From Balanoglossus misakiensis (taxonomy: Eukaryota > Animalia > Hemichordata), in the NCBI GenBank assembly GCA_040954595.2, contig CM082583.2, forward strand, positions 5,330,849-5,394,848: 64,000 bases of DNA, in the 5' to 3' direction. Shown here piece by piece: positions 4,149 through 50,477 of the stretch (positions are counted from its first letter, which is position 1; every line of letters starts with the position of its first letter). Both the position numbers and the translations under genes were made by a program. A model generated the notes under the pieces. The model saw nothing but the letters and a program-made list of their open reading frames with translations. It was not told where the DNA came from and did no database searches.

Positions 4149-7100
4149 GTAAGTGACCACCCTTTTGGCGTGCCACTGCTTTGTTATGAATGCTTCTAAA
4201 CATCCTGTAACGCGTAGACAGGAAGAAGCTTCTCTGTCGCGTATGTATGGTATGTGCCAAACGGAGTCGGTGAGAGGTGAACTGTTCAGTGCTATGTAGA
4301 AAACGTGCGTGACTCACGGCGTTTTTATAGTTCTCTGAAACGTATTAATTTCCTGGTTTTATGTATTGTTTATATCTACAGGTAAAAACTTGTACAACAA
4401 TGAACATGTGGCAATAAAATTGGTAAGTATTCGTTGTTGATGTTTACCGGTGGACAACGTGAAATATACAAGTCATCCCTGTAATGGAATAATTGGTCAT
4501 TGTGATGAGCTGAAATTACATCCAGTCAGTTTTGGTAATGTCTGTTCTTATGCTTCCAGCGTCCTGTTGTTTACCTCCTGCATATTTACATACCCCTCTT
4601 TCCCCTTATCAACAGGAACCCATGAAATCAAGAGCCCCCCAACTACATCTGGAGTATAGGTTTTACAAGATGCTTGGCCAAGCCGGTACAGTAGATTATT
4701 CGCATTGTTCAATTTGTTGTTTTGCACAGTTGTTTTGTCAAACACCCCCATTCACACCACTGACTGCAGTGTACAGTAACTGTATGCACATGTGAAGAAT
4801 AGCAACTAGTGCCTGTAGCCTAATGTATATATTCATTGGTATGGATATCACACACCCAGTCTGGTCCGACTGGTTTGACATAACAGCTGATTTGAATCCT
4901 GTTATGCAGCATTAGATTACTGGCTCTTGACTTGGGACTGCCAAAATAGTATCATTGGTTAACCTTTAAAAATGAATGGAATTCTGCTATTTATTAGGCC
5001 ATGAATTCCTTCGACCTTGACAAACCGCCAGACACGTGTGTGTTCAACCACATCTTATGATGTTCAGTTCAGGAGACGTATTATCTGAAGCGGTCCAATG
5101 GATGTTAAAATGGAGAATCCTGCTGTAAAATTTCTGGTATGCAGCCAGTGTGGAATCAGTGTAAACAGGCTAAATATGAAGTGTTTTTTAGAATGTTTCC
5201 TCAAGAGTCTAATTTACAAGCATATTGATCCCTTTACTAAACACAGTGTTACATATATGCAGAGTCTGTTTATATTGGGAGTTGAAATTGACATGGCAAT
5301 CTGCGCCCTTTTTATGCTCATATCTGTACACACGTTGGGTGACCTGTTGAGTGTTCGGATGTGTCATTTGTTTAACAATTCAAACTTTTCACACTGTCAT
5401 CGCCGTTTATACAGTCATTGTTTGAGATTGACTGCTGTTGCAGCTGTTCTGTTCAGGTAGTCTCACAGGGTAACAATGTCCACAGGTACGTCATCTGAAA
5501 TGCGGAAGAAAAGATTAGGTAGGTTTCTCTGCTGGGCAGTGGCAATGTCATCACCATAAAGTGGTGAAGGTCAGTGTTCTCCCCAGAAAAATTAAAGAGT
5601 ATCAGCCAATACCTCTTAATTTGGGAAAAACAAAAGAAGCTATTTATCGTAACAATTAATTTTATTGTTATGTAAATTAGCTGATACTGTATCAGAAGTT
5701 CCTTTTCCAACCATTAAAAAAACCCAGTGATATAAAAGTGAGTGTGGTGCTAGTGTCTGGTTTCAGTAGCGGAGAAATAATACCCCGTATTGAGTTTTGA
5801 TTGGAGAGCGAGAAAGGTAAAAATATTGCCCTTGAGATGAAATCCAGCAGAAGAAAAAAAAACTGCAGTGACCTCACAGTGTGAGCTGTGATTTCAAGGC
5901 TTTATTTCCCTCTGTCATGCCGGTAGATTGCCAGAAACTTTAAAAATCTGTTCATATGCTGATTGCTGTGTTGGTGGTGGTCACAGCTACTAGCAGTATG
6001 TGGGTTCCCTTCTTTTTGCCTACTTGCACGCAAATTGTATATGATCACCTACCTACATGTACATGTACATTAGCAACACTGACTGGTGTCACCCCCCTAC
6101 CACTTCGGTGATGGAACTTGAAAGCTTGCAGGGAATTTATAAATTTACAGGGGTTGGTGGAGATGGGGGTCAACAGTCTTCTTCATCTCTGATAGTTATT
6201 AATGTGAATTACATGCATGTGTGGCTAAATTGCGTTTAATTAGCGATTGGGCATCATGTCCTTACAGTTTGATGAATGAATTTTAACGAGCCGTGATTTC
6301 CAATGTGCAGGTTCTCCTTGCTGAGGGCAACCACCTTGAAATGGTCTTCTTGGTGTTCACTCATTTACATTAGCGTCATGTCAGGTCCCGTGAGTAAGAG
6401 TTCAATATAAAGAAACTGATGTGTAACTTCCATGATGCATATTGTGTGCACAAAGGGTCATTTTACACGGTGTCTAGATGTCGTTGTTACCCGGTCAGGG
6501 CATGATTGTGTTTCTGTTGGCCATAGTCTGGTTGTCAGTCAGCAACTGTGTGCAGTCACCTCTGTAAATGAATTAAGCAATAAAACACTCCCAGCCATGG
6601 TATACCACGAGATTTTGACCAGTTCACGACATATACGCACGAGCGATAGCGAGTGCGTATATGGAGTTGAACTGGTCAAAATCGAGTGGTATACCATGGC
6701 TGGGGGTGTTTTATTGCTATTATATTATGCCAGTATATTGAAACTTTGCATAAAACATTTTAAAAAGGCATTTTCTTTGACTATGATATATGACTGTGGT
6801 ATATGGCTAATATATCACGGTCACGTGTCGTGTCTCGACCAATCAAATAGCGTGATTTACACCATCAATATACTGGTATAATATAATAGGGGATATTTCC
6901 CGGTGGTTACCCAGAGTAATGATGTCATCGACACGGGTCTGTGTGGTTTCCTTTGCATTTTTGCAGGAGTCGTGTCAAGAGCCCTGTTCCTCTAGGGGTC
7001 GTGACCCCGTCTGCCGAGGCCCTTTCAGATTTCATGTGTGCAGTAATTACAGATGTTTAGTGGAAAACACTGTTACTTTGCTACTACTACCCCAGTGTGT

Positions 7101-10100
7101 GATTTTCACATGTGAACCGGGGAGTTGAGGACCCGATTTGTATCAGATGTAGGTGCTTTTACTTCACTTCTGGCTGTTCTTGAAACGGTGACATGTGTTC
7201 ACTGTCTCATCTTCTTCTGTAAAGCACCAAACTTTGTCACTGAAAGCTGACGTTTTCAACAAACCCGTCCACGCGCAAACAGGATGGTTAAAAGAAAGTG
7301 AAATGCACAAATCTACTGAGCATTTAAGTATGCTGCAGCCAGGGAAAGTCAACCTAATAATGGCAATAGGAGTGTAATTGTTTGTAGGTTTGAATTACCG
7401 TGGTTAGACATTTATGTCTTATCTGACACTGATAGGGTTACTCTAGACCCTTGGTAGTGTGTTGAGAATTGTGTAACCCCTGTCTGAATGTAACACTTGT
7501 GCATCTGGTTGACTGGTATATCTGTCTGCCTGCCTGCCATTTTTCATGTTCTATCCCCCATTGTGGTGCACTCTTTCTTGCCCAGGGCTCGGAACACAGC
7601 TGTGTGGAATCGAAACAGTCGTTTCCACTGTCTGTGGTTGTTTTCCCAACAACAGTGACTACTGACTACCAATATTGATTGATCAGTCACTTGTTTGTTT
7701 ATCAACGGCACACATTGTTCCAGTTATGATGCAGTGATCCTGCATTCATATGTGATTATTGGATCGCGCCATAAAAGTACAATGTGTCCACCTCCTCTAC
7801 ATGGAGCAGAGTATCAGTTACTGGTTCTGTTTTCTTATTCCATGCGTACGACATCATGACCCTGAGACAGCTGTACGGAGTTCTGACAGTGGGAGGAGAC
7901 CAAAAGGTATGGCTATTTGACCTTAAAAAGGGCACTTTGCCTGTCACACATACATGTACGAACATCCCTGAACCTGGACAATGTCACGAATATTAATGTG
8001 CTGGTAAAGTGCACCGAGGAAATCATCCCTGTGGACTTGTGAAGTCAGTGCTTGAGTAGTTACACTGCATGTTATCTATTCAGAATGCCTAAATGTAGTA
8101 ACACACAAGTGCTTGAAATTCCTTCAGAGAAAAAAAAAGAGATATGGTTCAAGCAAAGCACATGGAAGACCTCTTTTCAGGTAGCAATGTGTCGCATGTA
8201 CATGTGAACCGATCAGTCTAATGCGATGTGATTCAACTAATATCATGATGGAAATATTTTCCTCTCATATTCAGTGTTTCGTGCTGACCATTGGAGGGGG
8301 GGGGATTGGGGGAGGGATTTCTGTAAAAAAGCCGTTTTCTTGGTCTCGCTTTATGCGTGTCAGACAAACACAGTCACTGACTCTATTTCTGCTGAATCTA
8401 ACACCTGGATTTTTTTTACTGCAAGCAGATACTAATGTAGATGTTCTGAGTGGATATATAACGTCAGAGTCGTATCTTTGACAGGCTGTGAGGTAGAAGT
8501 CGATAAAACCTGCATGAGCATTTTGATAATGTTACCTAGGGTATATTGATCAAGGACATTGGCAATTCTGACGACTTAGTTCGTTACAACTTGCAGTGTT
8601 GTCAAATTTCAATACATACAATTAATTAACTGTGAAAAACAAATTTGCATAGTCTGTTCTAACCGTGATCTTGTGTATAATATAATTTTTACTGTATTTT
8701 GGTAATTTTTCATGATATGAATTCATTAGAGGGATAATTAAACCATGAATGCAAAATTCGTCATATTAGGAAATTACATAGAAAATGATTGTACACCATT
8801 ATTAGTTATGTAAAAAAAAATCATATTAGGGCCGTTGTGTTGTAATGTGTTGAGGAAATACTTAGGTTTTAAACAGTAGCCTGAACTGAGATAATATGAA
8901 TGATTGGGCTGAGGAAGTTTATATAGAGTTTCCTCTTTTTTTTTCTAAATCGCTTTTTTGACAGACAGGCTTATCTTGCAATCTATAATGTATTACCGTC
9001 AGCTGTTCAAGGTAGTCCAAAGGATTGACAGATCCGGGTAGCTCATATCCTGGTTTCTTTGCCGTGTGTTTTACTCTTTTGGAATGAAGGTGGTTTGCCC
9101 CATTTTGTTGTGAAAGAAATGCAGCGTATTTGCAATGAAACAAACACCTTTGCCATGATCATCGGCTGGCTTCATTGCAGGACGTGTGTTTTGCCATAGC
9201 AAGTTTATTGTTAACCTATAGACTGCTACCAGCAACAAATTAATAGAGGTGTGTATTTGAAATAAACTGTGTAGATGTAACACAGACAAACAGATGGATG
9301 GATTCTGTGCACATGCTGCTAAATTAGCCATGCCAGGTTGGCAATGGCAATGCTGACCTTTGAACTCTGCTGAGTGAACCATCTTTTTTTTTCTGTGACC
9401 TCCATCCATATTGCCCAGGACATCACAGATTATGTCATAATACTAAATACATGTAGTATTATTCTTGTGAAGTACACATTTGCATAAATTATACATTTAT
9501 GTATGCGAAAAATTCCTCTAATAGATGGTAAATAGATATAATGGTAAAATTGCAGTATTATATTTAAGCAATAAAACACCCCAAGCCATGGTATACCACG
9601 AGATTTTGACCAGTTCAAGACATATACGCACGAGCGATAGCGAGTGCGTATATGGAGTTGAACTGGTCAAAATCGAGTGGTATACCATGGCTGGGGTGTT
9701 TTATTGCTATTATATTATGCCAGTATATTGAAACTTTGCATAAAACATTTTAAAAGGGCATTTTCTTTGACTATGATATATGACTGTGGTATATGGCTAA
9801 TATATCACGGTCACGTGTCGTGTCTCGACCAATCAAATAGCGTGATTTACACCATCAATATACTGGTATAATATAATAGAACACATTCCATGTCATATCT
9901 TATTCAAAATTAATTGTCAATTTCAGGGCAGTTCATCTAGGAGATTTGTTACAACCATGTATAATTTCATGTTTATTAATGTTCTGCCTTTGGAAATCAT
10001 TAGTGATACTGTATGTAGTTCAGTATGAATACCTTTTAAAGTACAATACACCTCGGTATTTGCTGTTATGAGAACACTTTGGGGGGTTCAGATGTTTTGT

Positions 10101-13100
10101 GGTAAAGTGTTTTCAGTTGTCATGGGGAAACACACATGTCAGACTCTCCCTGTGAGTAATTTATGCATGCGTTTTCTTTTGTAAATGAATGTAGTAGTGT
10201 TTATTTTAACATCAGCGCTCAATATTGATAACCATCTATGTGCCTTGTAAAATACTACAGACCTAATTAAATAGTCCTTAGTGAAAGATGTGCAATTTGC
10301 ATATGTAAGCATGTGTCAATTTACAGGCTATAGTTCATGTTCACAAGGAATTTGCAGCACTCATGGTTTGAATTTTTGTTAGTGACATATACTGAAAAAT
10401 AAAATTGTAAAAATTTAAGTTAAAAAAAGTAAAATTGTTCCCAAAATATATATTATTATTATACATCTAGTGCCGAGAACAATAGATTTTGGCGTGCAAT
10501 AAAAAGCCGTACGGAACGGTACGTACGGAACGCGCGTTAAATAAGCCTTAGTTTCAAGGCGCCCCAAACTCACCGTGTACAGGTATGCGCTGTTATGCGG
10601 ACGGTTTCAAGGCGCCCGCATTCCAACGCACGCGCACGTACGTAAACAAAAAAGAAAGATGGCTGCTCACTGAGCGGTTTTCGATCGATTGTATCGGCAT
10701 TTTGGGCGTTTTGAAAGCCAAGTAACATGCAAAACAAGAACTATCGGAGATGTAAGATGTATAATAATAAGGTTATTACGAAAATACCGCAAAGTATGCA
10801 CTCGGACATTAGCGCAGCGCATCGCCCTCCGCTACGCGTCGGGCGATACTCAGCGCTAATGTCCTCGTGCATACTTTGCGGTATTTTCGTAATAACCTCA
10901 TAATACAAGAATTCACGAGCAGTGAAATTTCAGTAATATACAGTTGGGAAAATATAGTAGTTGTGAGCTTGGCGATAATATTTTTGTAAAATGAGTGTTT
11001 GATATTGCGACTGAAGCATCATATTGAAGTACTCGTTTAGTTATTTTTATGTGTAGGTCGAAGTTCATGACCAATGGAACAGATCACTTTGCTTCAAGTA
11101 TTGAATAATGGAACCCTGTTTTTGTGTTTTCTCTGTTCAGGTGCAAATTGTTTATTGCCATGCTTTACGGTGCTCTCCCAAGGAATTGCTGATGGTGTGA
11201 TGGCTAAATTACATAACAATAGAAGTAATTGTTATGTTGATGAAACCCTGTTGTTTTTGCCCAAATTAAAGAAGTGGTGGCCACCATGCTGTAATTGCCC
11301 TTGGGGAGAACACTGAAAAACTGTGCTGTGGATTTTGGTAAACATCTGGCAGTACCACTAGAATTAGTCCTTGAAGTTGAATAATTGTTTGGAAATGGGA
11401 TTGTTTGTCCAGTTCTCTAGTCTAGAAAATTAACAGCTACTGTGAGCAGATATCTAGTGTGAAATCCCTTTCACATTATTCTAGAATGAACTGGGCTCAA
11501 TATACATGTAAGGTAATACGTAACAGGTGAAATTGCATTGAGGTGTGGATCATGACACTCCCAGCAATGGACGAGGGGGGGGGGGGGTCACCAGGGTCTG
11601 TGATCCACAGTATTGATGTGATTAGTAACACAATATCAAAATGTGAATGTAAACAGCCTGTGTCAAGACTGGTATAAATCATTTAGCTGTTTGCTAAATT
11701 TACATTGTATAATGATGAGCATTTCAGAGTAATTATGTTTCAGGAGACATTACAGTGCTATGTGTGTCCTGTGCTGGCTTGGTACCTCTGATTTGCAGCT
11801 GTGCGCATGCCACAACCCCGCCACTCCCATATTATCACGCCACATTGCATGATGCCCTGTTACAACATAACATATGAGCCAAACTCCCCATTGTTCAATG
11901 TGTTGTCTGTTTCACGTGCATATATGTGCTGTAATGTACGTACACTTGCTTGATAATGATATTGCCTCTGGGTTGGGAAGCCCCAGCATTTCACGTGAAA
12001 CGCAATGCCGCGCACGTTGTGTTGCCATGATAACCCGTGAATTTCTGTGATCTCCAAGGCCGCGCGGGATTTCCATTCATAACGGTTTGCCAACCTGTAT
12101 TTTCACAAATTGTTTCGTTGCCTGATATTATCGTTCTGCTTGAATGGACTCTGAACGGGGATAATAAGGCGAGGTTGGAATCATTGCAATTTTGTCCGGC
12201 AAGAATAATAAAGCTTGTAGTTCTGCGATGGAGAAGATAATTAATGTGACATTGGTTAAATGTTATATATAAAATGTAAGCTATAATGTGAACATGTTAG
12301 AGGTCATGCATGTGTGGCCATTACAATATAGCATAAAAAGCAACTGACATCTTCCTAAAGAATGTGACTGTTTCAATACGTTCTGATAGCTTGATGTGAA
12401 CCTTATGCAGGGATGAATGCAAATTTGGCATACTTTCACAGGTTACCTTGATTAAAATTGTTTAATTTATCAATTTTCCTCCAAGGTTGAATTGGATATC
12501 AATCATGTTTGGCAAAACATGTTGTGTAAGTGTAGGGGAGGGGTGAGGATGAGCTGGGCCCATACGGCATCATGGCTAGCCAGCTCATTGGTCAAGAAAT
12601 TAGAGAGAGTGATGGCAAGAGCTATACACGTAATGCATAGTACAGGTCATTTCATTTGATTGTGCCTGTGAAGTTAATGAAAATAGTGCAGTGGCATGTC
12701 TGCACTGCATAGCAAACGAGGGTAGGCCTACACACAGGTAATTCTGACTCTGATCGTGCCCTCAGATTTTTTGATATGTGATACCCGGTGTCTGAATGTT
12801 TTTAGCTGGTACTGTTACTATAAGATTGAATTAACAGATGTTTTGTCTGGATTCAGTGGCCATAGGGTCTGGTTGATTAAGTATTTATTTGGGGGATCAA
12901 GTTTTGCATTGGTGGATGGGAGGTGTAACCCCTTTGTCCAGCCCAATTTTAGTTTGATCCCATTCTTTTTCGATGGCAAGGCTGGTTCATTTGCAGGGAG
13001 AATAGGGCGGAATGGTCCAATCTTTACCGTTTCAGCAGGTGTCCATGGTCGTGCTGTTTGATCGCATGGAAACGTGCTCAGGGTGTTGAAAAATCCTACG

Positions 13101-21700: not shown

Positions 21701-24700
21701 ATAAAATACATGTCACATGCCCATGTACATTGTCTCTGGTCTTTTGTTTTGAAGATGGTGACTATTTATCAGTCATCCCTTTAAATACAGAAACGCACAC
21801 CGGCAATAAATTATGCCGTAACCTTTGACCCCGCCAGGTGACAGTATCCGGCTAGTGTCACGCAGCCACTTCAGAAAAGACACGACCGGGTGCGTTGTTT
21901 GTCCAGTCTAGAAACAGAACGATAAATGTAGAATCCCAATCCAATCTTGGTCACGCTGTTATTGTCGGCGTGCTTTGTGGAAGTAAAGATGTTGAAAACA
22001 ACGTAAGCAAGTTGCAATTCCCCGTGGTTTGAGTGAGTGGACGACTTGGGGGCAGAAACGCGAACGAAGTTTGCGATGTGTGTCTGAAATTGAAACAAGG
22101 CTCCAGCGTCCCACGCGTATACCGGGGACTTTGAATTATGGCGTCATAACAGTTTAATCTCAATTTATTTGGTACGGATTTCTATAGAGGAAGGCAATTA
22201 CAGCATAATGAGCGGTGATCATTGCCATGGCAACATGCAACAGTTTGGTGTTGTTTTGCTACCATGGAAATAAATTGCAAGACCGTATATTTTAATTCAA
22301 TTCAGGTTTTCATGATAGTAAAATAAAAATTAAATTGTTTTATAATTGTTGTGTCCATGTACAACTGAACATACATGTACATGCTTGTGTGTATAAGTTA
22401 TATATATGCGAGTTTATCATAGCATTGACTATAGGGAGTCAATTTTTCCCCAACCAAATCAGTTTTTCTTGAAAACTTCATATTTTTGGTGTAAGCCTAA
22501 GATTATACTTAAAATTAAATCAAAGTTTTGCCAGAAGTGTAGGCTTCGTAACATACCGGTAAGTGATATTAATTAAGAAAAATAAAAACATGGGCAGAGC
22601 ACGACATATGTAATTTCACTCAGAATGCCACCAAGAAACCAAACAAAGATATATCTGGTTTCCCCGGAGTGAAATCAACACCAGTCAAAAACTCAGGATT
22701 TATGTCATGTTTTATAGTGCACCCCTCTGCTCCTTTCATAATTTTCACCCCTTCGACAGTAAACACAGTGTATGCTGAAAAGAAAATGTGTCCGGCGAAA
22801 ATTGGCTGACGTGATGAGACTCATGCGACTGTATTCATCAGGTTCGGTGTACTTCAACCTATCATTATCGGTGAGAATGTCACCAGAATAAATCAGGGCG
22901 ACTTTAGTTTATGTTACGATGGGCCTTTTGTCATTGAAATGGTCTTGAAGCACGCCACAGCCCACGTTTGATTGAAGCGCTCAAGAGTAACCATATGTTT
23001 CTTTTAAAAATGCAAGATTTGAATAGAAATTCTGATTTTCAGTCGTTTATTGTTCAACTTTTGCGAACTGCAACTGTATCGCAATGGCATCTGTGTGTGG
23101 GTGCCCTTCTGAACCTCAAGAACTGTAAATAACTTAGCTACTGACAAGAAATTCTACAATGAAGCTTTAACGCCTTTTGAATAATTTTTTTTTTTTAGCA
23201 CAATATTGATAATTTTGACAGCGGGAGATATTTTTCGAGGGCATCTGCAAAGAATTCTTTGGAAAGCGGAGCGCGCTGACACTACAAGCAACATTATTCC
23301 CTGGCATATAGAGACTATAAACTACACAAGCATAATATTGAAGCTGGCAGAGCGTATCAAATGTCAGAGGCTAATAGACTCCGAGTATCAAATTGAGCCG
23401 TTTGTGATGCAAAAGATAACTGATGCTTCACCTTGAACTTGGGCCGGCTGCGAAATATCAATTTATTCGCGGGCTCAAATTCAATTTTGACTTCACAACA
23501 GTTCCATTGTCGGTTTATGTACTGTAATCAATAAATTTTCGTGAATTTCCTGGCAAAAGGAAAGAAAACGTGTGCTTCTTGGATAGACCGAGTGTTGTGA
23601 GATCGCTGCCGATCCCACAGTGCTGAGTGGTTATGCCTGCCATGAATAAATGTGTGATTGTCAGGAATTTGCAAGATGCTATGGTGAAAAATTATAATGA
23701 TCGACAGTCTTCAGAAAAATGGACTGTTTTCTGCTGCGACCAACTCCCACTTAGGCTGCATTCACAAACACCTCTGGAGGGGGGGGGGCGGGAGAATTCA
23801 ATTTTTTTTACCGTTAATTTTCACATGCCCCCCTCAACAACCCGAAATATTTTCAAATCCCCCCCTTCCGAACTGCTAAAATTTTCAAGTCCCCCCCCCC
23901 ATTTTCTTTCACTCAGCAAAACACATCACCTATCTATCTTGTAAAAAAGAAAAACAGCGCTCCCATGAAAAGAATTTGAAACTGATGTTTCCCCTCATCA
24001 GTGGGTATTAAAACTGAACATTGTTTTTATTTTTTAAGTATCTGTATTCTGTGTTGGGAGACATTGTAAACCAAGAATTGAAGGGGGTGGGTTTGGGAGG
24101 GGGTGTCCCCCTCCCACGTAAGAAAATTTTATAAAATACAGAGCTCAAAGCTGCATTTTAATGAACCTGGCAAAAGCACATTAACTCAACTACGGTATGT
24201 TGGGGAGGACAAATTTAACCGCCGTTATCATGGGGTGGGGGCAAGTCCCCTGACCTGGGACACTAGATAAACCAGTCAATGTTTGAAAGGTGTTGATAAA
24301 TGGAGGGGGTGGGTGTGGGAGGGGGTGTCCCCCTCCCACATTAGAAAATTTTGTAAAATAAAGGGCGCGAAACTGCATTTTTGTGGACTCAAAATAAATA
24401 TTTAGTCGTCAAAGTTTTCAAGTCCCCCCCTTTCAGTCCCTAAATTATTTCAAATCCCCCCCCCTTACATACCCTCAATTTTTTCAAATCCCCCCCCTCA
24501 ATTCTCCTGCCCCCCCCTCCAGAGGTGTTTGTGAATGCAGCCTTACATTGCATTGTTCGCGTGTGGTGCATTTCGAGCTATGTCCTGGGAATGGGATGAG
24601 AGATTTGCTTCTTTGATATCGTAACTTGGTGCCTCGTTGATGTCAAGCTGGTTGCCTCAGTCTGTCTCGAAACGGACTGTGCATGTCGCAATCCGGCTTC

Positions 24701-45398: not shown

Positions 45399-48300
45399 GT
45401 ACGTTGACACAACATTTCCAGCATAATGTGTTTTGAGTGTACTGTCTCCGTCAGTTGTATGTACTTAGAATTGTATATCCGAATACGGTAGCGAAAGCAG
45501 GAAGTACGAAATGTACATATCTGAAAGTGAAACCGAAATCTCTGTCTGTTGATGAGTGAAGACATCAATAACAAGACTGTGACCAGGAGAATGCGAGTTT
45601 GACATTCATTCATTCATATTCATTCATTCATTCATTCATTCATTCATTCATTCATTCATTCATTCATTCATTCATTCATTCATTCATTCATTCATTCATT
45701 CATAGCATTGTTTGAAGTATTCTTACATTCAGCCTATTCACATCTGTGGTATCAATTCATTCATTCTTGTTCACGATATCAGAGAATTTCCAGCAGGGAT
45801 TTTCATTGTTGCAGTGTATTGTCATGCAAGTAGAATTTTGGGGCTAAAAACAATCTTTTTCCCCCATTTTATACTTGAAACTAGATATTTTCTAGAAATT
45901 GATGATGCTACTGACCTGGAAGATTACATGCTGGATATTTTAGATGGTACAAACCCCAAACATAGAAACTTTATCGATGAACTTCTGCGGAGAACTAAAA
46001 ATGTACGAAGACAACCAGCTGTACCTGAAAATGTGCAAGTGTACAGAAAGACAGGCGATGATCATTCACACACAGGTGAAAGAACAAAATCAAAGAAAAC
46101 GAAAAATAAACCAGAGAAGCAAAAAATTGATCTGATGAAGATGCCTGTGTCAAGAATGCCAGGGGACCCACCTGTCAAGGTTAGTGCTCATTAAGAATGT
46201 TTTAATTAATGCCTGTTAATTGGTTCATTCATCTTTGCGTACTATGTGGGCCATTGCTACTGCCACTGAGAAAAAAACTTGCAGGTAAATACAGTGAAGT
46301 ACATTTCTGAGTGTCTCACTTTGCTAATTTTCAGAATTTACAATTGATGTGTTCAGACTGTTCATAGTTGCAGTTTTGTTGGCCACAAAATATATGCCTT
46401 TTGTCAGTGAAACCAGAGTTGACAATGACAAGTAACAAATTGCATGATATTGTCATCAGGATGAAGATTATCTTGGGAGTGCTGCTCCAGCCAGTCAGCC
46501 AGCGCCAGCCCAGCAAACCGTCACGAAGAAGAAACAAAAGTACCTTCCCTTGTACTCTCAAGAGGGCCAGGCCAAAAGCACTGTCCACATTCCAGGAAGG
46601 CATCCGTGTGAGTGCCAGGCACAGAAGCATGGACTGGTGAACAATTGCCTGAAGTGTGGGAGGGTTGTGTGCAATCAGGAGGGGTCAGGCCCATGCTTCT
46701 TCTGTGGTGCATTGGTATGTACTGTGCTGCCTTTTCTTCAGTTCTGAGAAAGAAGTACTTTACGTATGATGTCAAATCATCCCATTTTCATGAATATACT
46801 GAAATCACAGACTTCGATTCAACTCAGATATTCTCCTGCCCCCCCCCCCCCCCTCTCCAGGTATGCACACCTGAAGAGCAAGAAGTACTGGCCAGAAATT
46901 CTCACAAGAGTGAAAAGCTTCTGAAGAAACTGATGGGTGACCACCTCATCAGTGACAAGTATGGTGCCTCGGTCCAGGCAGAGTCGGCCAAAATGAAGGA
47001 GAATTTTCACCTGGCTGTACAACACAAGGACAAACTCATAGAGTATGACAGAAACAGGTATAATGGAAGAATGACGCTCTCAATCTCAAATTTTAATTTC
47101 TCACCTCTAAAGCATGTGTGTTATGAGTAAGTTGAAACCTGGGATTTTAACCCTTTCACCACCATTGTTTGGTCCACATCCATTGTTTTCTATGGTGAAG
47201 TTGGACCAGTATAGAGAGAAATGGTGTTGAGAGCGTTAAGTGAAGTAGCTATGAATAATACTAAGTTTGTTTACAATTTTATCTGACAGGTAATAATTCC
47301 TACAGCCTCAGTTGAAACTCTGTTGGTTTCTTGAATTCTTCATGCATGATCAGAGACGTTCATGAGTCTGGTTGTATCTACCTGCGATCGCGCATACCCT
47401 GCTTAAGTTGATGCCTGATTTTTCTTGTTTAATTCCAGTGTGCGAAGGACCCAAGTGATAGATGATGAATCTGATTACTTTGCAACCGACTCAAATCGAT
47501 GGTTATCCAAGAAGGAGAGAGAAAAGTTGAAGAAGCGAGAGGAGGAGCTGAGAGAACTTCGGCACGGATCGAGGAGGAACAGAAAAGTCACTTTGGACTT
47601 TGCTGGCAGACGAGTCCTGGAGGATGATGAAGCTGTTCATATGTATGACAGGTGACCAGTGTTTAAGGCATTGTTTGGTAGCTACAACCATAAAATCTGT
47701 GTTAGAAGATGATGCGTGGCTTAGGAAATTTCGGAGATTTCCCTTAGTCAATTCTGTGGTATCCACATGCAGTGTTTAGTGGCCACTTTTGACAATTATA
47801 ATTTATAGCGACACAAAGATTGCTTTGATTGAAAGTTTCCAAGCGAGGTTGTGAGGATTAGTTTGGATCTGACTTAATTAGAAATTTTGTGTTTGCAGTT
47901 ATTTAATCACAGAATGGTTTAGACTTTTGTGTGTATTGTAAACCAAATTTGAAGTCTCAGTTTTTCAGTTAAATAGCTCACATTACATTCCTGTTTATCT
48001 TTCTGTCTGATAGGAATGATGCTGTGGTCCAAGCTGTTAATTTTGGAACTGAATCCAGCCAAGCTGGGGAAAAGCCCCATCATGACAACGCTGAATTTAC
48101 ACTTATCAACCCCAGCATCTCACAGCATGCACCAAAGGTAAGATCCCTGTCTCATACCCTGTGCAGAAACTCTAATGTTTAATGTTGATTTTTTGTATAT
48201 TTGAGCCCAGATGAAAATTACTCTTTTGAGTTGAACAGTTAATAAGAATTTTTTTCCATACAGTCGAACCTGTCTATAGTGGCCAGTCAAGGGTCTTTCC

Positions 48301-50477
48301 TAAACTGGCCTTTATAGACCAGTGGCTTTTATATAGAGGTTAATTAATGCACACGTGAATTGCTCAGGGACTGTAACAAAGTGGCCACTATCTGGGTGAC
48401 CACTATATAAGGGTGGCCACTAACAGAGGTTTGACTGTACTGTTTTCAAACCTACAACGTTCTCCACAAATTAGACAAACTCTGTCTGATCTCCAGCAGC
48501 AGTTGTATAACTTTGACAACTTTCATTTAATGCATTAGTTTATTGACGACAAGAAATCCTCAAGACAGACAAGAACTGGAAGGTCTTCACCACCGCTGTC
48601 TGAATCGGCCAGGAACAGAGGAGCGCTCCGCATTCAGGACAGGGAACTGATGGAAATGTCGGACGAAGGCATGGCATTGAGTATGCACCAACCGTGGGCG
48701 TCATTACTCACGAACGGAATTAAGATGTAAGTGATGGGAAGGTGGGCAGAAGTGGAGGGAGGGGGTGAAACACGCACAGGTTGGCAGGCTAGGCTAAGGA
48801 GAGAGGGAGGAGGCTACAGACACAGGCAGACAAACAAACAAGCAGAGAGAAGGACACACATTTTATGAAATAGATATTGAAATGCACAAAACTGATCTTG
48901 TGTCAAAGTTTATTGTGATGTACACCAACCAGAAATGTGTTTTTATTTCAATGGTAGACACGAAGGCCGGACATGGTACAGTTCACACCGCGGCAGGCTT
49001 TGGATAACGGCGGCTGCCAAGCAGCCTACAAAACAAGAAATCATGGAATTGGAGCAAATACACAGAGCAATGCATCCAGGTAAAGTGTATTCATTTACAG
49101 TTTGCACTGATTTGTTCAGGCCAGGCCTTGTCTTTTCATTCCTAAAGTGATCTCCTAATAGGACAGACTTCAGGTGCTGGTTTACGATGATGGTAGCTTC
49201 TGAACATGGTGGCAACCAGCAATCCAAAACAGTTGAAAGCAAACGGTATTGAGTGGCTGCATTTTATGTCATCACAGGTGAAGTGACATTCCCTGAGCAG
49301 TATCCAGTCAGCTGTCTACTTGGATGTGTTGATGTGGTGGATTGTCTTTCGCAGGAGCAGTACAGAGAACAGGTAATGATGAACAGGAAAAATGCTGTGG
49401 AAATGTGTGCAATGGCGCCCTCAGTGGCCAGCATATCAGATTCTGTCTTTTCAGTAAGCAAAAAACAGCATGCATGCTCAACGGAAACAAAGGTGTCTAA
49501 TGTCCTTAACATCTGTTGTTTATTTAATTTTATTGCTAACATTACAAATATCTTATTCACAAGTTCCGTTGGCAATGCATCCCCTATCGTTTTGAAGTGC
49601 CCTGGATATAAACATTTGTATAGGGTCACATCAACATGTTTATGCCTACTCTGGCATTTCATGATAAGAGCAGAGTATATTTTGACTCAGACTCTGAGAT
49701 ACAGAGTGTAACAAAAAAATTAATGTGACAAAGCTGCAAAAGTGCTGAGAAAACAAAATACCAGAGGGTAGTTAGTGAAATTTATTACATGTAATGTAAG
49801 CCACCCTGTTTACCGATCACCCCCCCCCCCCCTTCAGCTGCATGGATTGTGTCACACCTGTATAGTGGTGATAGTATGTAATTTTTTCTGTTCATCATCC
49901 TCTTCTCCTTGTCTTTGCTGACAGTTCCCAGGTGGCGAGTCATCCTCCCCTTATGTTTTTATTTGTGAAAATCCCCAAGAATTAGTCGTCAAGTTTCCAA
50001 TCAAAGGCCAGCACAAAATATGTAAGTATCGCACACTAAACAGTTTATGTATGACATTGATAAGCGTGGTGATTTTGTTTTACACTGTAATCCAATATGG
50101 TAGATGAGTTGTCAAATTAAATCATACTTGGTTACAAGTTTTCCCCTATGTCTTGAATGTCGAATATCTTCTTGAACGGAAGAATTGTAATAGCGCCATC
50201 TTGTGGTTCAAATTATAAAGTCTTTAAGAGATGTCCAGACAATGGGAGAGAGAAAGGGTTGATGATGTTTTGTGTGGGCCGTGCAAACATTACAGCTGTC
50301 AACTCATTTGTATCCATTTAGTTTCTATGTAGTAGATGTTGCATTGTTAGCGATAACAAAACGCTTGACAGTAAGGCCCTCACGTCTTTTTTGTGTTACG
50401 CCTGTTTTTTTATTTCAATAGGGAAGCTGGACCCGCACATACACCAGGCAGCGAAGAAAGGACTGCGGAGGAAATGA
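45307..50477 (+). CDS. TRIP4: Activating signal cointegrator 1 (ASC-1), complete, 11 exons, 1734 nt / 577 aa
   Basis: Exons 45307-45398, 45885-46179, 46460-46714, 46861-47057, 47439-47651, 48014-48137, 48539-48726, 48958-49079, 49278-49372, 49925-50021, 50422-50477, all phases consistent. C2HC5 zinc finger (GRHPCECQAQKHGLVNNCLKCGRVVCNQEGSGPCFFCG), RRTQVIDDESDYF, ASCH domain (LSMHQPWASLL..GIK.HEGRTWY..HRGRLWI...KGQHKIWKL). Confidence 0.97.
45603..45703. repeat. (CATT)n microsatellite, ~25 units, in TRIP4 intron 1
   Basis: Directly visible, one interruption. Confidence 0.97.
45885..46179 (+). CDS. TRIP4: TRIP4 coding exon 2
   Basis: YFLEIDDATDLEDYMLDILDG...PGDPPVK; donor GTTAGT. Confidence 0.88.
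46460..46714 (+). CDS. TRIP4: TRIP4 coding exon 3 (zinc finger)
   Basis: DEDYLG...KKKQKYLPLYSQEG...GRHPCEC...PCFFCGAL. Confidence 0.93.
46861..47057 (+). CDS. TRIP4: TRIP4 coding exon 4
   Basis: VCTPEEQEVLARNSHKSEKLLKKLM...AVQHKDKLIEYDRN. Confidence 0.94.
47147..47239. mobile_element. ~90-bp TTAA-flanked mini-element (piggyBac-like ends)
   Basis: TTAA-CCCTTTCACCACCAT...ATGGTGTTGAGAGCG-TTAA; same family as 21374-21463. Confidence 0.65.
47439..47651 (+). CDS. TRIP4: TRIP4 coding exon 5
   Basis: VRRTQVIDDESDYFATDSNRWLS...KVTLDFAGRRVLE. Confidence 0.94.
48014..48137 (+). CDS. TRIP4: TRIP4 coding exon 6
   Basis: NDAVVQAVNFG...LINPSISQHAPK; TAG / GTAAGA. Confidence 0.87.
48261..48437. mobile_element. 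pogo/Tc1-mariner-type MITE, 177 bp
   Basis: TIRs CAGTCGAACCTGTCTATAGTGGCCA / TGGCCACTAACAGAGGTTTGACTG, TA duplicated at both ends. Confidence 0.88.
48539..48726 (+). CDS. TRIP4: TRIP4 coding exon 7
   Basis: FIDDKK...LRIQDRELMEMSDEGMALSMHQPWASLLTNGIK. Confidence 0.92.
48958..49079 (+). CDS. TRIP4: TRIP4 coding exon 8
   Basis: HEGRTWYSSHRGRLWITAAAKQPTKQEI...HP. Confidence 0.93.
49278..49372 (+). CDS. TRIP4: TRIP4 coding exon 9
   Basis: EVTFPEQYPVSCLLGCVDVVDCLSQEQYREQ. Confidence 0.94.
49925..50021 (+). CDS. TRIP4: TRIP4 coding exon 10
   Basis: FPGGESSSPYVFICENPQELVVKFPIKGQHKI. Confidence 0.94.
50422..50477 (+). CDS. TRIP4: TRIP4 last coding exon
   Basis: WKLDPHIHQAAKKGLRRK-TGA. Confidence 0.93.

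Follow-up and report, generated by a model that had tools for sequence, protein, structure and literature searches.

The 64,000-nucleotide (nt) stretch of the hemichordate Balanoglossus misakiensis analyzed here (the window; assembly GCA_040954595.2, contig CM082583.2, positions 5,330,849 to 5,394,848) carries short, gene-less mobile elements of two families, A (copies A1 and A2) and B, inside a long intron of a plus-strand gene with exons at ∼4.1 to 4.7 kb and from 28.5 kb onward. The elements end in a long hairpin whose stem is interrupted by tandem GA/GA mismatches on one strand (the GA strand; its complement is the TC strand), and an internal mirror of both element ends overlaps that hairpin (Table 1).

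Table 1. Coordinates of the family A and family B features within the window.
Feature	Position	Strand	Description
A1, 314-nt non-autonomous CryptonA-type element	6574..6887	+ (GA strand)	Empty allele; depth jumps at both ends; 98% identity to A2
A1 terminal hairpin	6576..6718	+	Three GA/GA tandems, GATA loop
A1 internal mirror (layout of the DIRS internal complementary region)	6686..6741	+	Left-end complement (32/33) directly followed by right-end complement (22/23)
A1 right end	6865..6887	+	Pairs with the mirror, terminates in AAT
Target AAT left of A1	6571..6573	+	Kept in the empty allele
Internal imperfect palindrome of A	6793..6825	unassigned	Two of ten TGGTATA-like motifs (candidate protein-binding motif)
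A2, 313 nt	9565..9877	+	Left flank ATT, right end AAT; no exact target duplication
B element, ∼449 nt	10454..10902	- (GA strand)	Bounded by depth and contig ends
B terminal hairpin	10770..10898	-	Two GA/GA tandems, GTA triloop, one variable irregular loop
B internal mirror	10755..10801	-	Both ends, 32/32 and 15/15
B right end	10454..10468	-	Pairs with the mirror

Hairpins, strand-specific tandems, and the internal mirror

The A1 hairpin comprised a stem of 63 pairs in which all three 2x2 internal loops were GA/GA, together with a 1-nt bulge, one G·T wobble near the base, and a GATA loop. An earlier reading of the bare sequence (the original prediction) had placed the tandems at 6609-10/6684-85, 6628-29/6664-65, and 6641-42/6651-52 beneath a GC-GATA-GC cap, and these coordinates were exact. 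The same reading had the hairpin repeated in A2, where two clean GA/GA tandems were indeed present, but the middle loop was 2x3 as the result of a C>A change. On the minus strand of B we recovered the expected GA/GA loops (offsets 32 and 58), C-GTA-G triloop, and single irregular loop, and in both families the GA strand was, as had been claimed, the one on which the hairpin precedes the second inverted repeat pair. Across A1 (three) and B (two), the 2x2 loops were thus GA/GA in 5/5 cases and on one strand per family, the outer closing pair was C-G in all five, the context was C-GA-S/S-GA-G throughout, and the first tandem lay 33 bp (A) or 32 bp (B) from the element end. The probability of obtaining 5/5 GA/GA loops with one strand per family was ∼1.6e-5 under the most generous null (symmetric loops only) and far lower otherwise, a post hoc figure for two families whose caps may share ancestry. 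Sheared G·A pairs and GNA loops are stable in DNA, and the GATA loop of A does not fit the GNRA loop rule of RNA. Folding z-scores ranged from -16 to -21 on both strands, with 0/200 shuffles equally stable for each hairpin; the rest of the 64-kb window held no comparable hairpin (the next best, among stems of 16 or more pairs, reached -18 kcal/mol), and an Rfam scan of 6000-11500 returned 0 matches.

The second inverted repeat pair turned out to be half of the mirror. In A and B alike, the 3' hairpin arm runs straight into the complement of the right end, and one strand can fold as two abutting helices with both element ends adjacent on a continuous partner. Such a mirror would be useless to plain double-strand excision, yet in a single strand it places the two ends side by side, which favors a reading in which one strand folds.

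The stronger proposal that only one strand can fold was not supported. Predicted DNA folding energies of the GA and TC strands were -67.6 versus -64.1 kcal/mol for A1, -67.5 versus -65.7 kcal/mol for A2, and -65.5 versus -61.0 kcal/mol for B, so that the TC strand, at -61 to -66 kcal/mol, was merely 1.8 to 4.5 kcal/mol weaker. The 1999 and 2004 DNA parameter sets produced the same output and therefore provide no independent check on each other. The energy model grants each GA/GA loop an advantage of 0.4 to 0.5 kcal/mol and applies no GNA bonus in B; because it contains so little bonus for sheared pairs, it underestimates the strand gap. The true difference in stability is probably larger than predicted, with the TC strand still keeping its long (60-bp) stem. 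On the basis of these models, the mismatches can mark a strand and stabilize its tip, and folding of the other strand would not be blocked. In attC sites, too, unpaired features tell apart two foldable strands (PMC5027507; here and below, published work is cited as far as the accessible portions of each paper go).

Mobility of the elements and the link to a CryptonA recombinase

Variation and element ends were read from public contigs of three runs (X1, X2, and X3) of a single sample. Family A is young, very abundant, and insertion polymorphic. A1 aligned with 553 and 631 contigs, of which 338 and 400 were at least 99% alike, and the summed contig depth was 1.7e5-5.5e5 on A versus 77 on the flank, values that we do not take as copy number. 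One contig each in X1 and X2 joined position 6570 to 6885, an empty allele in which 314 nt are skipped and AAT fits either side. Among the matches listed for flank contigs in X1, AAT was kept in 17/17 on the right and 9/18 on the left; the left/right trinucleotides were AAT/AAT at A1 and ATT/AAT at A2. Such a scar would be expected if an AAT encoded by the element crossed over with a similar trinucleotide at the target, and it does not suit the duplication left by a staggered cut. Family A has no terminal inverted repeat (TIR) pair, its ends pairing with the internal mirror and not with each other, and no true target-site duplication. The contention that the mismatches are not decay was borne out, as GA/GA is the consensus of family A: the complete variant table from these contigs (nine rows) placed 0 variants at the 12 GA positions and one row inside the hairpin. 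The family is too young and uniform, however, to reveal stronger conservation of the GA positions than of the stem, as selection would have it.

Family B, with 819 and 528 contigs, was likewise abundant and showed more variation than A. No variant fell on its GA/GA positions among the best 40 of 67 rows (rows reach 10859); the irregular loop was variable in ∼44% of the depth, and the middle base of the loop in 25% (X1) with GNA kept. No empty allele for B was seen in the contigs. A diverged B end (10706-10902, 26 differences) continues for several hundred bases in high-depth contigs (X1 2271, X2 702), suggesting a B subfamily amplified within another repeat. Separately, over 10684-10859 of B, X3 had 15 A>G places compared with 2 in X1 and X2, in both arms and without matching T>C partners. 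X3 is a small run (28 million letters) that we guessed to be DNA; if it is RNA, the A>G changes would be an A-to-I editing pattern, with the TC/UC strand folding in transcripts.

The original prediction called for a tyrosine recombinase partner with the same ends, and such a partner exists for the hairpin end of family A, in another species. We scanned a metagenome collection with three short A motifs (48/64 parts covered, at least 116 loci) and folded 120 matches, of which the top 30 were read and 90 judged by energy. Two true relatives of A, L071 and L054, aligned with it at both ends and at the cap. In L071, a fish element that is cut off at its 5' end, the homologous hairpin lies directly 3' of a recombinase gene that is frameshifted over two frames. 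The R, K, H-x-x-R, H, and Y residues of the recombinase are present, and they are conserved in an alignment of 68 proteins. Pfam matches to DUF3504 (E 3.9e-5) and phage integrase (E 8.6e-4) were both below the curated cut-offs, and the product shared 68% identity with a protein that carries both annotations; a profile match had E 1e-75, and 38 named homologues of the 39 listed were teleost DUF3504 proteins with 52-70% identity. The A1 and L071 hairpins were identical at 85/141 positions (0/1000 shuffles as good), and among 56 aligned stem pairs 35 were the same, 21 had changed on both sides, and 0 on one side. The L071 cap (GA/GA plus C-GAA-G on a 3-bp stem) is of the cap type of B, and the recombinase gene runs antisense to the GA strand of L071. 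When a model of a full-length homologue (P0001; predicted local distance difference test score, pLDDT, 86.9) was compared with known folds, the closest was Cre (Z 18.9, root-mean-square deviation 3.9, 299 residues aligned), followed by XerA, IntI4, and XerH; such a search cannot separate double-strand from single-strand recombinases. A sequence search of solved structures gave weak matches to QRICH1, XerA, and integrases. Since its end is homologous to that of an element with a DUF3504 recombinase, A is, judged by this hairpin end, a non-autonomous CryptonA.

Elsewhere, motif scans of a viral collection (5, 1, 1, and 1 loci) and of prokaryotes (6 loci) yielded chance matches without a hairpin, and protein-based locus searches of the viral collection found nothing. 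A near-perfect 124-nt hairpin of short repeats (L095) lacked a GA/GA cap and had been matched by chance.

The two families had been described as unrelated and as sharing no sequence. The absence of shared sequence held statistically (their local alignment score was reached by 257/300 shuffles), but the best alignment was exactly the cap, and the description as unrelated is doubtful given that B has the cap type of L071 and that the end layout is common to both. As their best alignment falls at the cap and TATAAT occurs in both right ends, A and B are more likely to be distantly related than to be independent witnesses or separate inventions. B, too, is likely a CryptonA-type element, an assignment made by design (cap and layout) only.

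Upstream of the host gene, the CEP120 exon at 1455-1748 encodes a sequence with 89-90% identity to proteins of Ptychodera flava and Glandiceps talaboti, other listed matches being at most 80%, which makes an enteropneust hemichordate the likely host. We take the intron-bearing gene (4088-33500, +) to be casein kinase 1 gamma-like from its motifs; it stands head to head with what we take as CEP120 (123-1748, -), an arrangement also known from the human genome. Exons at 45706-49711 (+) resemble TRIP4/ASC-1. An old 137-nt repeat occurs in two inverted copies that are 72% alike (5571-5704 and 11180-11316) and flank the A/B cluster. At 23753-24543 lies a ∼790-nt element resembling a miniature inverted-repeat transposable element (MITE), with terminal inverted repeats of 46 nt (93%) and internal direct repeats.

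Candidate routes of transposition

The self-pairing ends fit a folded-strand step, our favored explanation, and we consider the chances about even that a recombinase acts on one folded strand, the GA strand, of A and B elements. Once the GA strand was exposed, at a replication fork or in a cruciform, hairpin formation would start from the GNA/GNNA cap and its sheared GA/GA pair. Formation of the second helix would then place the right end beside the left end on the continuous mirror, where a recombinase provided in trans could join them in a single strand exchange. The product would be a rod-like circle of single-stranded DNA, and the donor strand pair would remain intact (copy-out). The junction duplex, once rebuilt, would exchange one of its strands with a W-W-T/A target in the genome, within the 3-nt overlap, and replication would resolve the insertion, as for integron attC and CTX phage. 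In such a scheme, the GA/GA tandems would label the strand to be used and prevent the duplex from being perfectly palindromic.

Every enzymatic step of this scheme is inferred, and several observations weigh against it. No intermediate was observed. Folding is predicted to be almost as good for the TC strand as for the GA strand, and two-sided stem changes also arise by arm homogenization in any palindrome. L071 has GA/GA only at the cap, where half of it was imposed by the search pattern, and the remaining 2x2 loop is AA/GC; L054, which is decayed, lacks GA/GA tandems altogether. The P0001 model is nearer to Cre (Z 18.9), a double-strand enzyme, than to IntI4 (14.7). No recombinase gene or fragment was present within the 64-kb window, and no enzyme link was found for B, for which one scan of the viral collection gave a chance match only.

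The classical Crypton route, in which a double-strand circle is excised and inserted, is the published proposal (PMC3212892). The palindromes would then serve as arrays of duplex binding sites or as an extruded cruciform that does no more than aid synapsis, with GA/GA as the cheapest interruption of a long palindrome; the ten TGGTATA-like motifs of A could represent duplex binding sites, the recombinase fold is Cre-like, and a scar with a 3-nt overlap fits any tyrosine recombinase crossover. We regard this route as unlikely, as it leaves unexplained why GA/GA sits on one strand at every interruption, the GNA caps, and the contiguous mirror.

The order of ends, mirror, and gene is that of DIRS-1, and the junction trinucleotide behaves as proposed for DIRS, which would suit a route in which a reverse transcriptase (RT) acting in trans copies a transcript into first-strand complementary DNA (cDNA), whose ends the mirror holds together to form a circle for the recombinase to insert. 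The GA strand of L071, being antisense to the recombinase gene, would correspond to first-strand cDNA (one case, with a 50% probability by chance). Such a route is nevertheless quite improbable: the CryptonA elements listed in PMC3212892 measure 1.2-2.3 kb and are described as encoding a recombinase only, neither A nor B is long enough to encode an RT, and no RT partner was found, none having been searched for.

A neutral sieve, in which the arms are homogenized while folded and sheared G·A tandems that repair overlooks accumulate without being needed, would account for arms that are otherwise near-perfect and co-varying, for fish copies without extra tandems, and for a family A too uniform to show selection. 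It would still require one particular strand to be folded in vivo, however, and A and B share the closing context and the distance to the first tandem (33 and 32 bp), making this explanation very unlikely in our judgment. Least probable of all is an origin of B in another system (HUH/Helentron-type or unknown) that came to resemble A by convergence on single-strand folding; B shows no significant similarity to A or L071 and no enzyme link, but it has the cap type of L071, the same mirror layout, and a right end with TATAAT like that of A. A MITE of a DDE transposon was rejected, there being no terminal inverted repeats and no fixed target duplication. Where a Helentron or HINE would share its termini with a Rep/helicase element, A is tied to a tyrosine recombinase.

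Comparison with known systems

The transposition mechanism of Cryptons has so far been proposed only by analogy, as a double-strand circle. Family A provides a recently active element of 314 nt whose ends, target, and strand marks are precisely defined, so that the question becomes directly testable. If the folded-strand scheme is true, it would constitute a folded-single-strand tyrosine recombinase system in animals, would link the end structures of Cryptons and DIRS, and would hint at the ancestry of the domesticated DUF3504 proteins (ZMYM2-4, QRICH1, and KCTD1) and of the human Eulor5/6 relics.

For animal Cryptons, no terminal repeats were found and a circular-DNA model was cited (Kojima & Jurka 2011, PMC3212892); CryptonA has been reported from the acorn worm Saccoglossus and fish (PMC3212892), and salmon Cryptons and human Eulor5/6 have termini in common (Kojima 2018, PMC5753468). 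Like CryptonA, the elements described here lack a TIR and a true target duplication and form abundant short non-autonomous copies, and L071, the relative of A, has a DUF3504 tyrosine recombinase. A and B differ in the hairpin, mirror, and GA/GA rule, which are not described in the accessible text of PMC3212892, PMC5753468, and PMC13465315, where the word "hairpin" has 0 occurrences; the accessible part of the last, the 2026 Glomhopper paper, mentions neither a hairpin nor a single strand. No description of the end design of A and B was found in the open literature searched, Repbase, Dfam, and subscription journals being outside its scope. The transposon class is therefore known, and its end design and probable folded-strand mechanism are apparently undescribed in print.

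In DIRS-1, the internal complementary region is essential, the intermediates are single stranded, and the target has been proposed to be defined by the trinucleotide at the junction (PMC7192593). A and B resemble DIRS-1 in having an internal complementary region that matches both outer ends as inverted adjacent copies; further shared traits are the position of these copies near the 3' end of the gene, the junction trinucleotide at the target, and, for A through L071, a tyrosine recombinase (PMC7192593). DIRS-1 differs in encoding GAG, RT, and RNase H and in its long inverted long terminal repeats, all absent from A (314 nt) and B (∼449 nt), whose relative is of the recombinase-only type. Integron attC sites and the CTX phage recombine via folded single strands (PMC5027507, PMC3458562), and attC insertion is resolved by replication (PMC3458562). 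The attC and CTX attP sites share with A and B an imperfect palindrome and unpaired features that distinguish two foldable strands, and their enzyme is a tyrosine recombinase, as in L071 (PMC5027507, PMC3458562). Unlike A and B, they are bacterial, they use extrahelical bases as strand marks instead of tandem G·A, they have no sequence relation to A and B, and their integrase, IntI, is not the closest fold. Tentatively, and with slightly less than even confidence, we suggest that animal CryptonA elements may be eukaryotic counterparts of integrons and CTX phage, in which a Cre-like recombinase would cut and join a mirror-splinted folded strand whose identity is written in sheared G·A tandems, and that the DIRS internal complementary region may be the same device inherited by retroelements.

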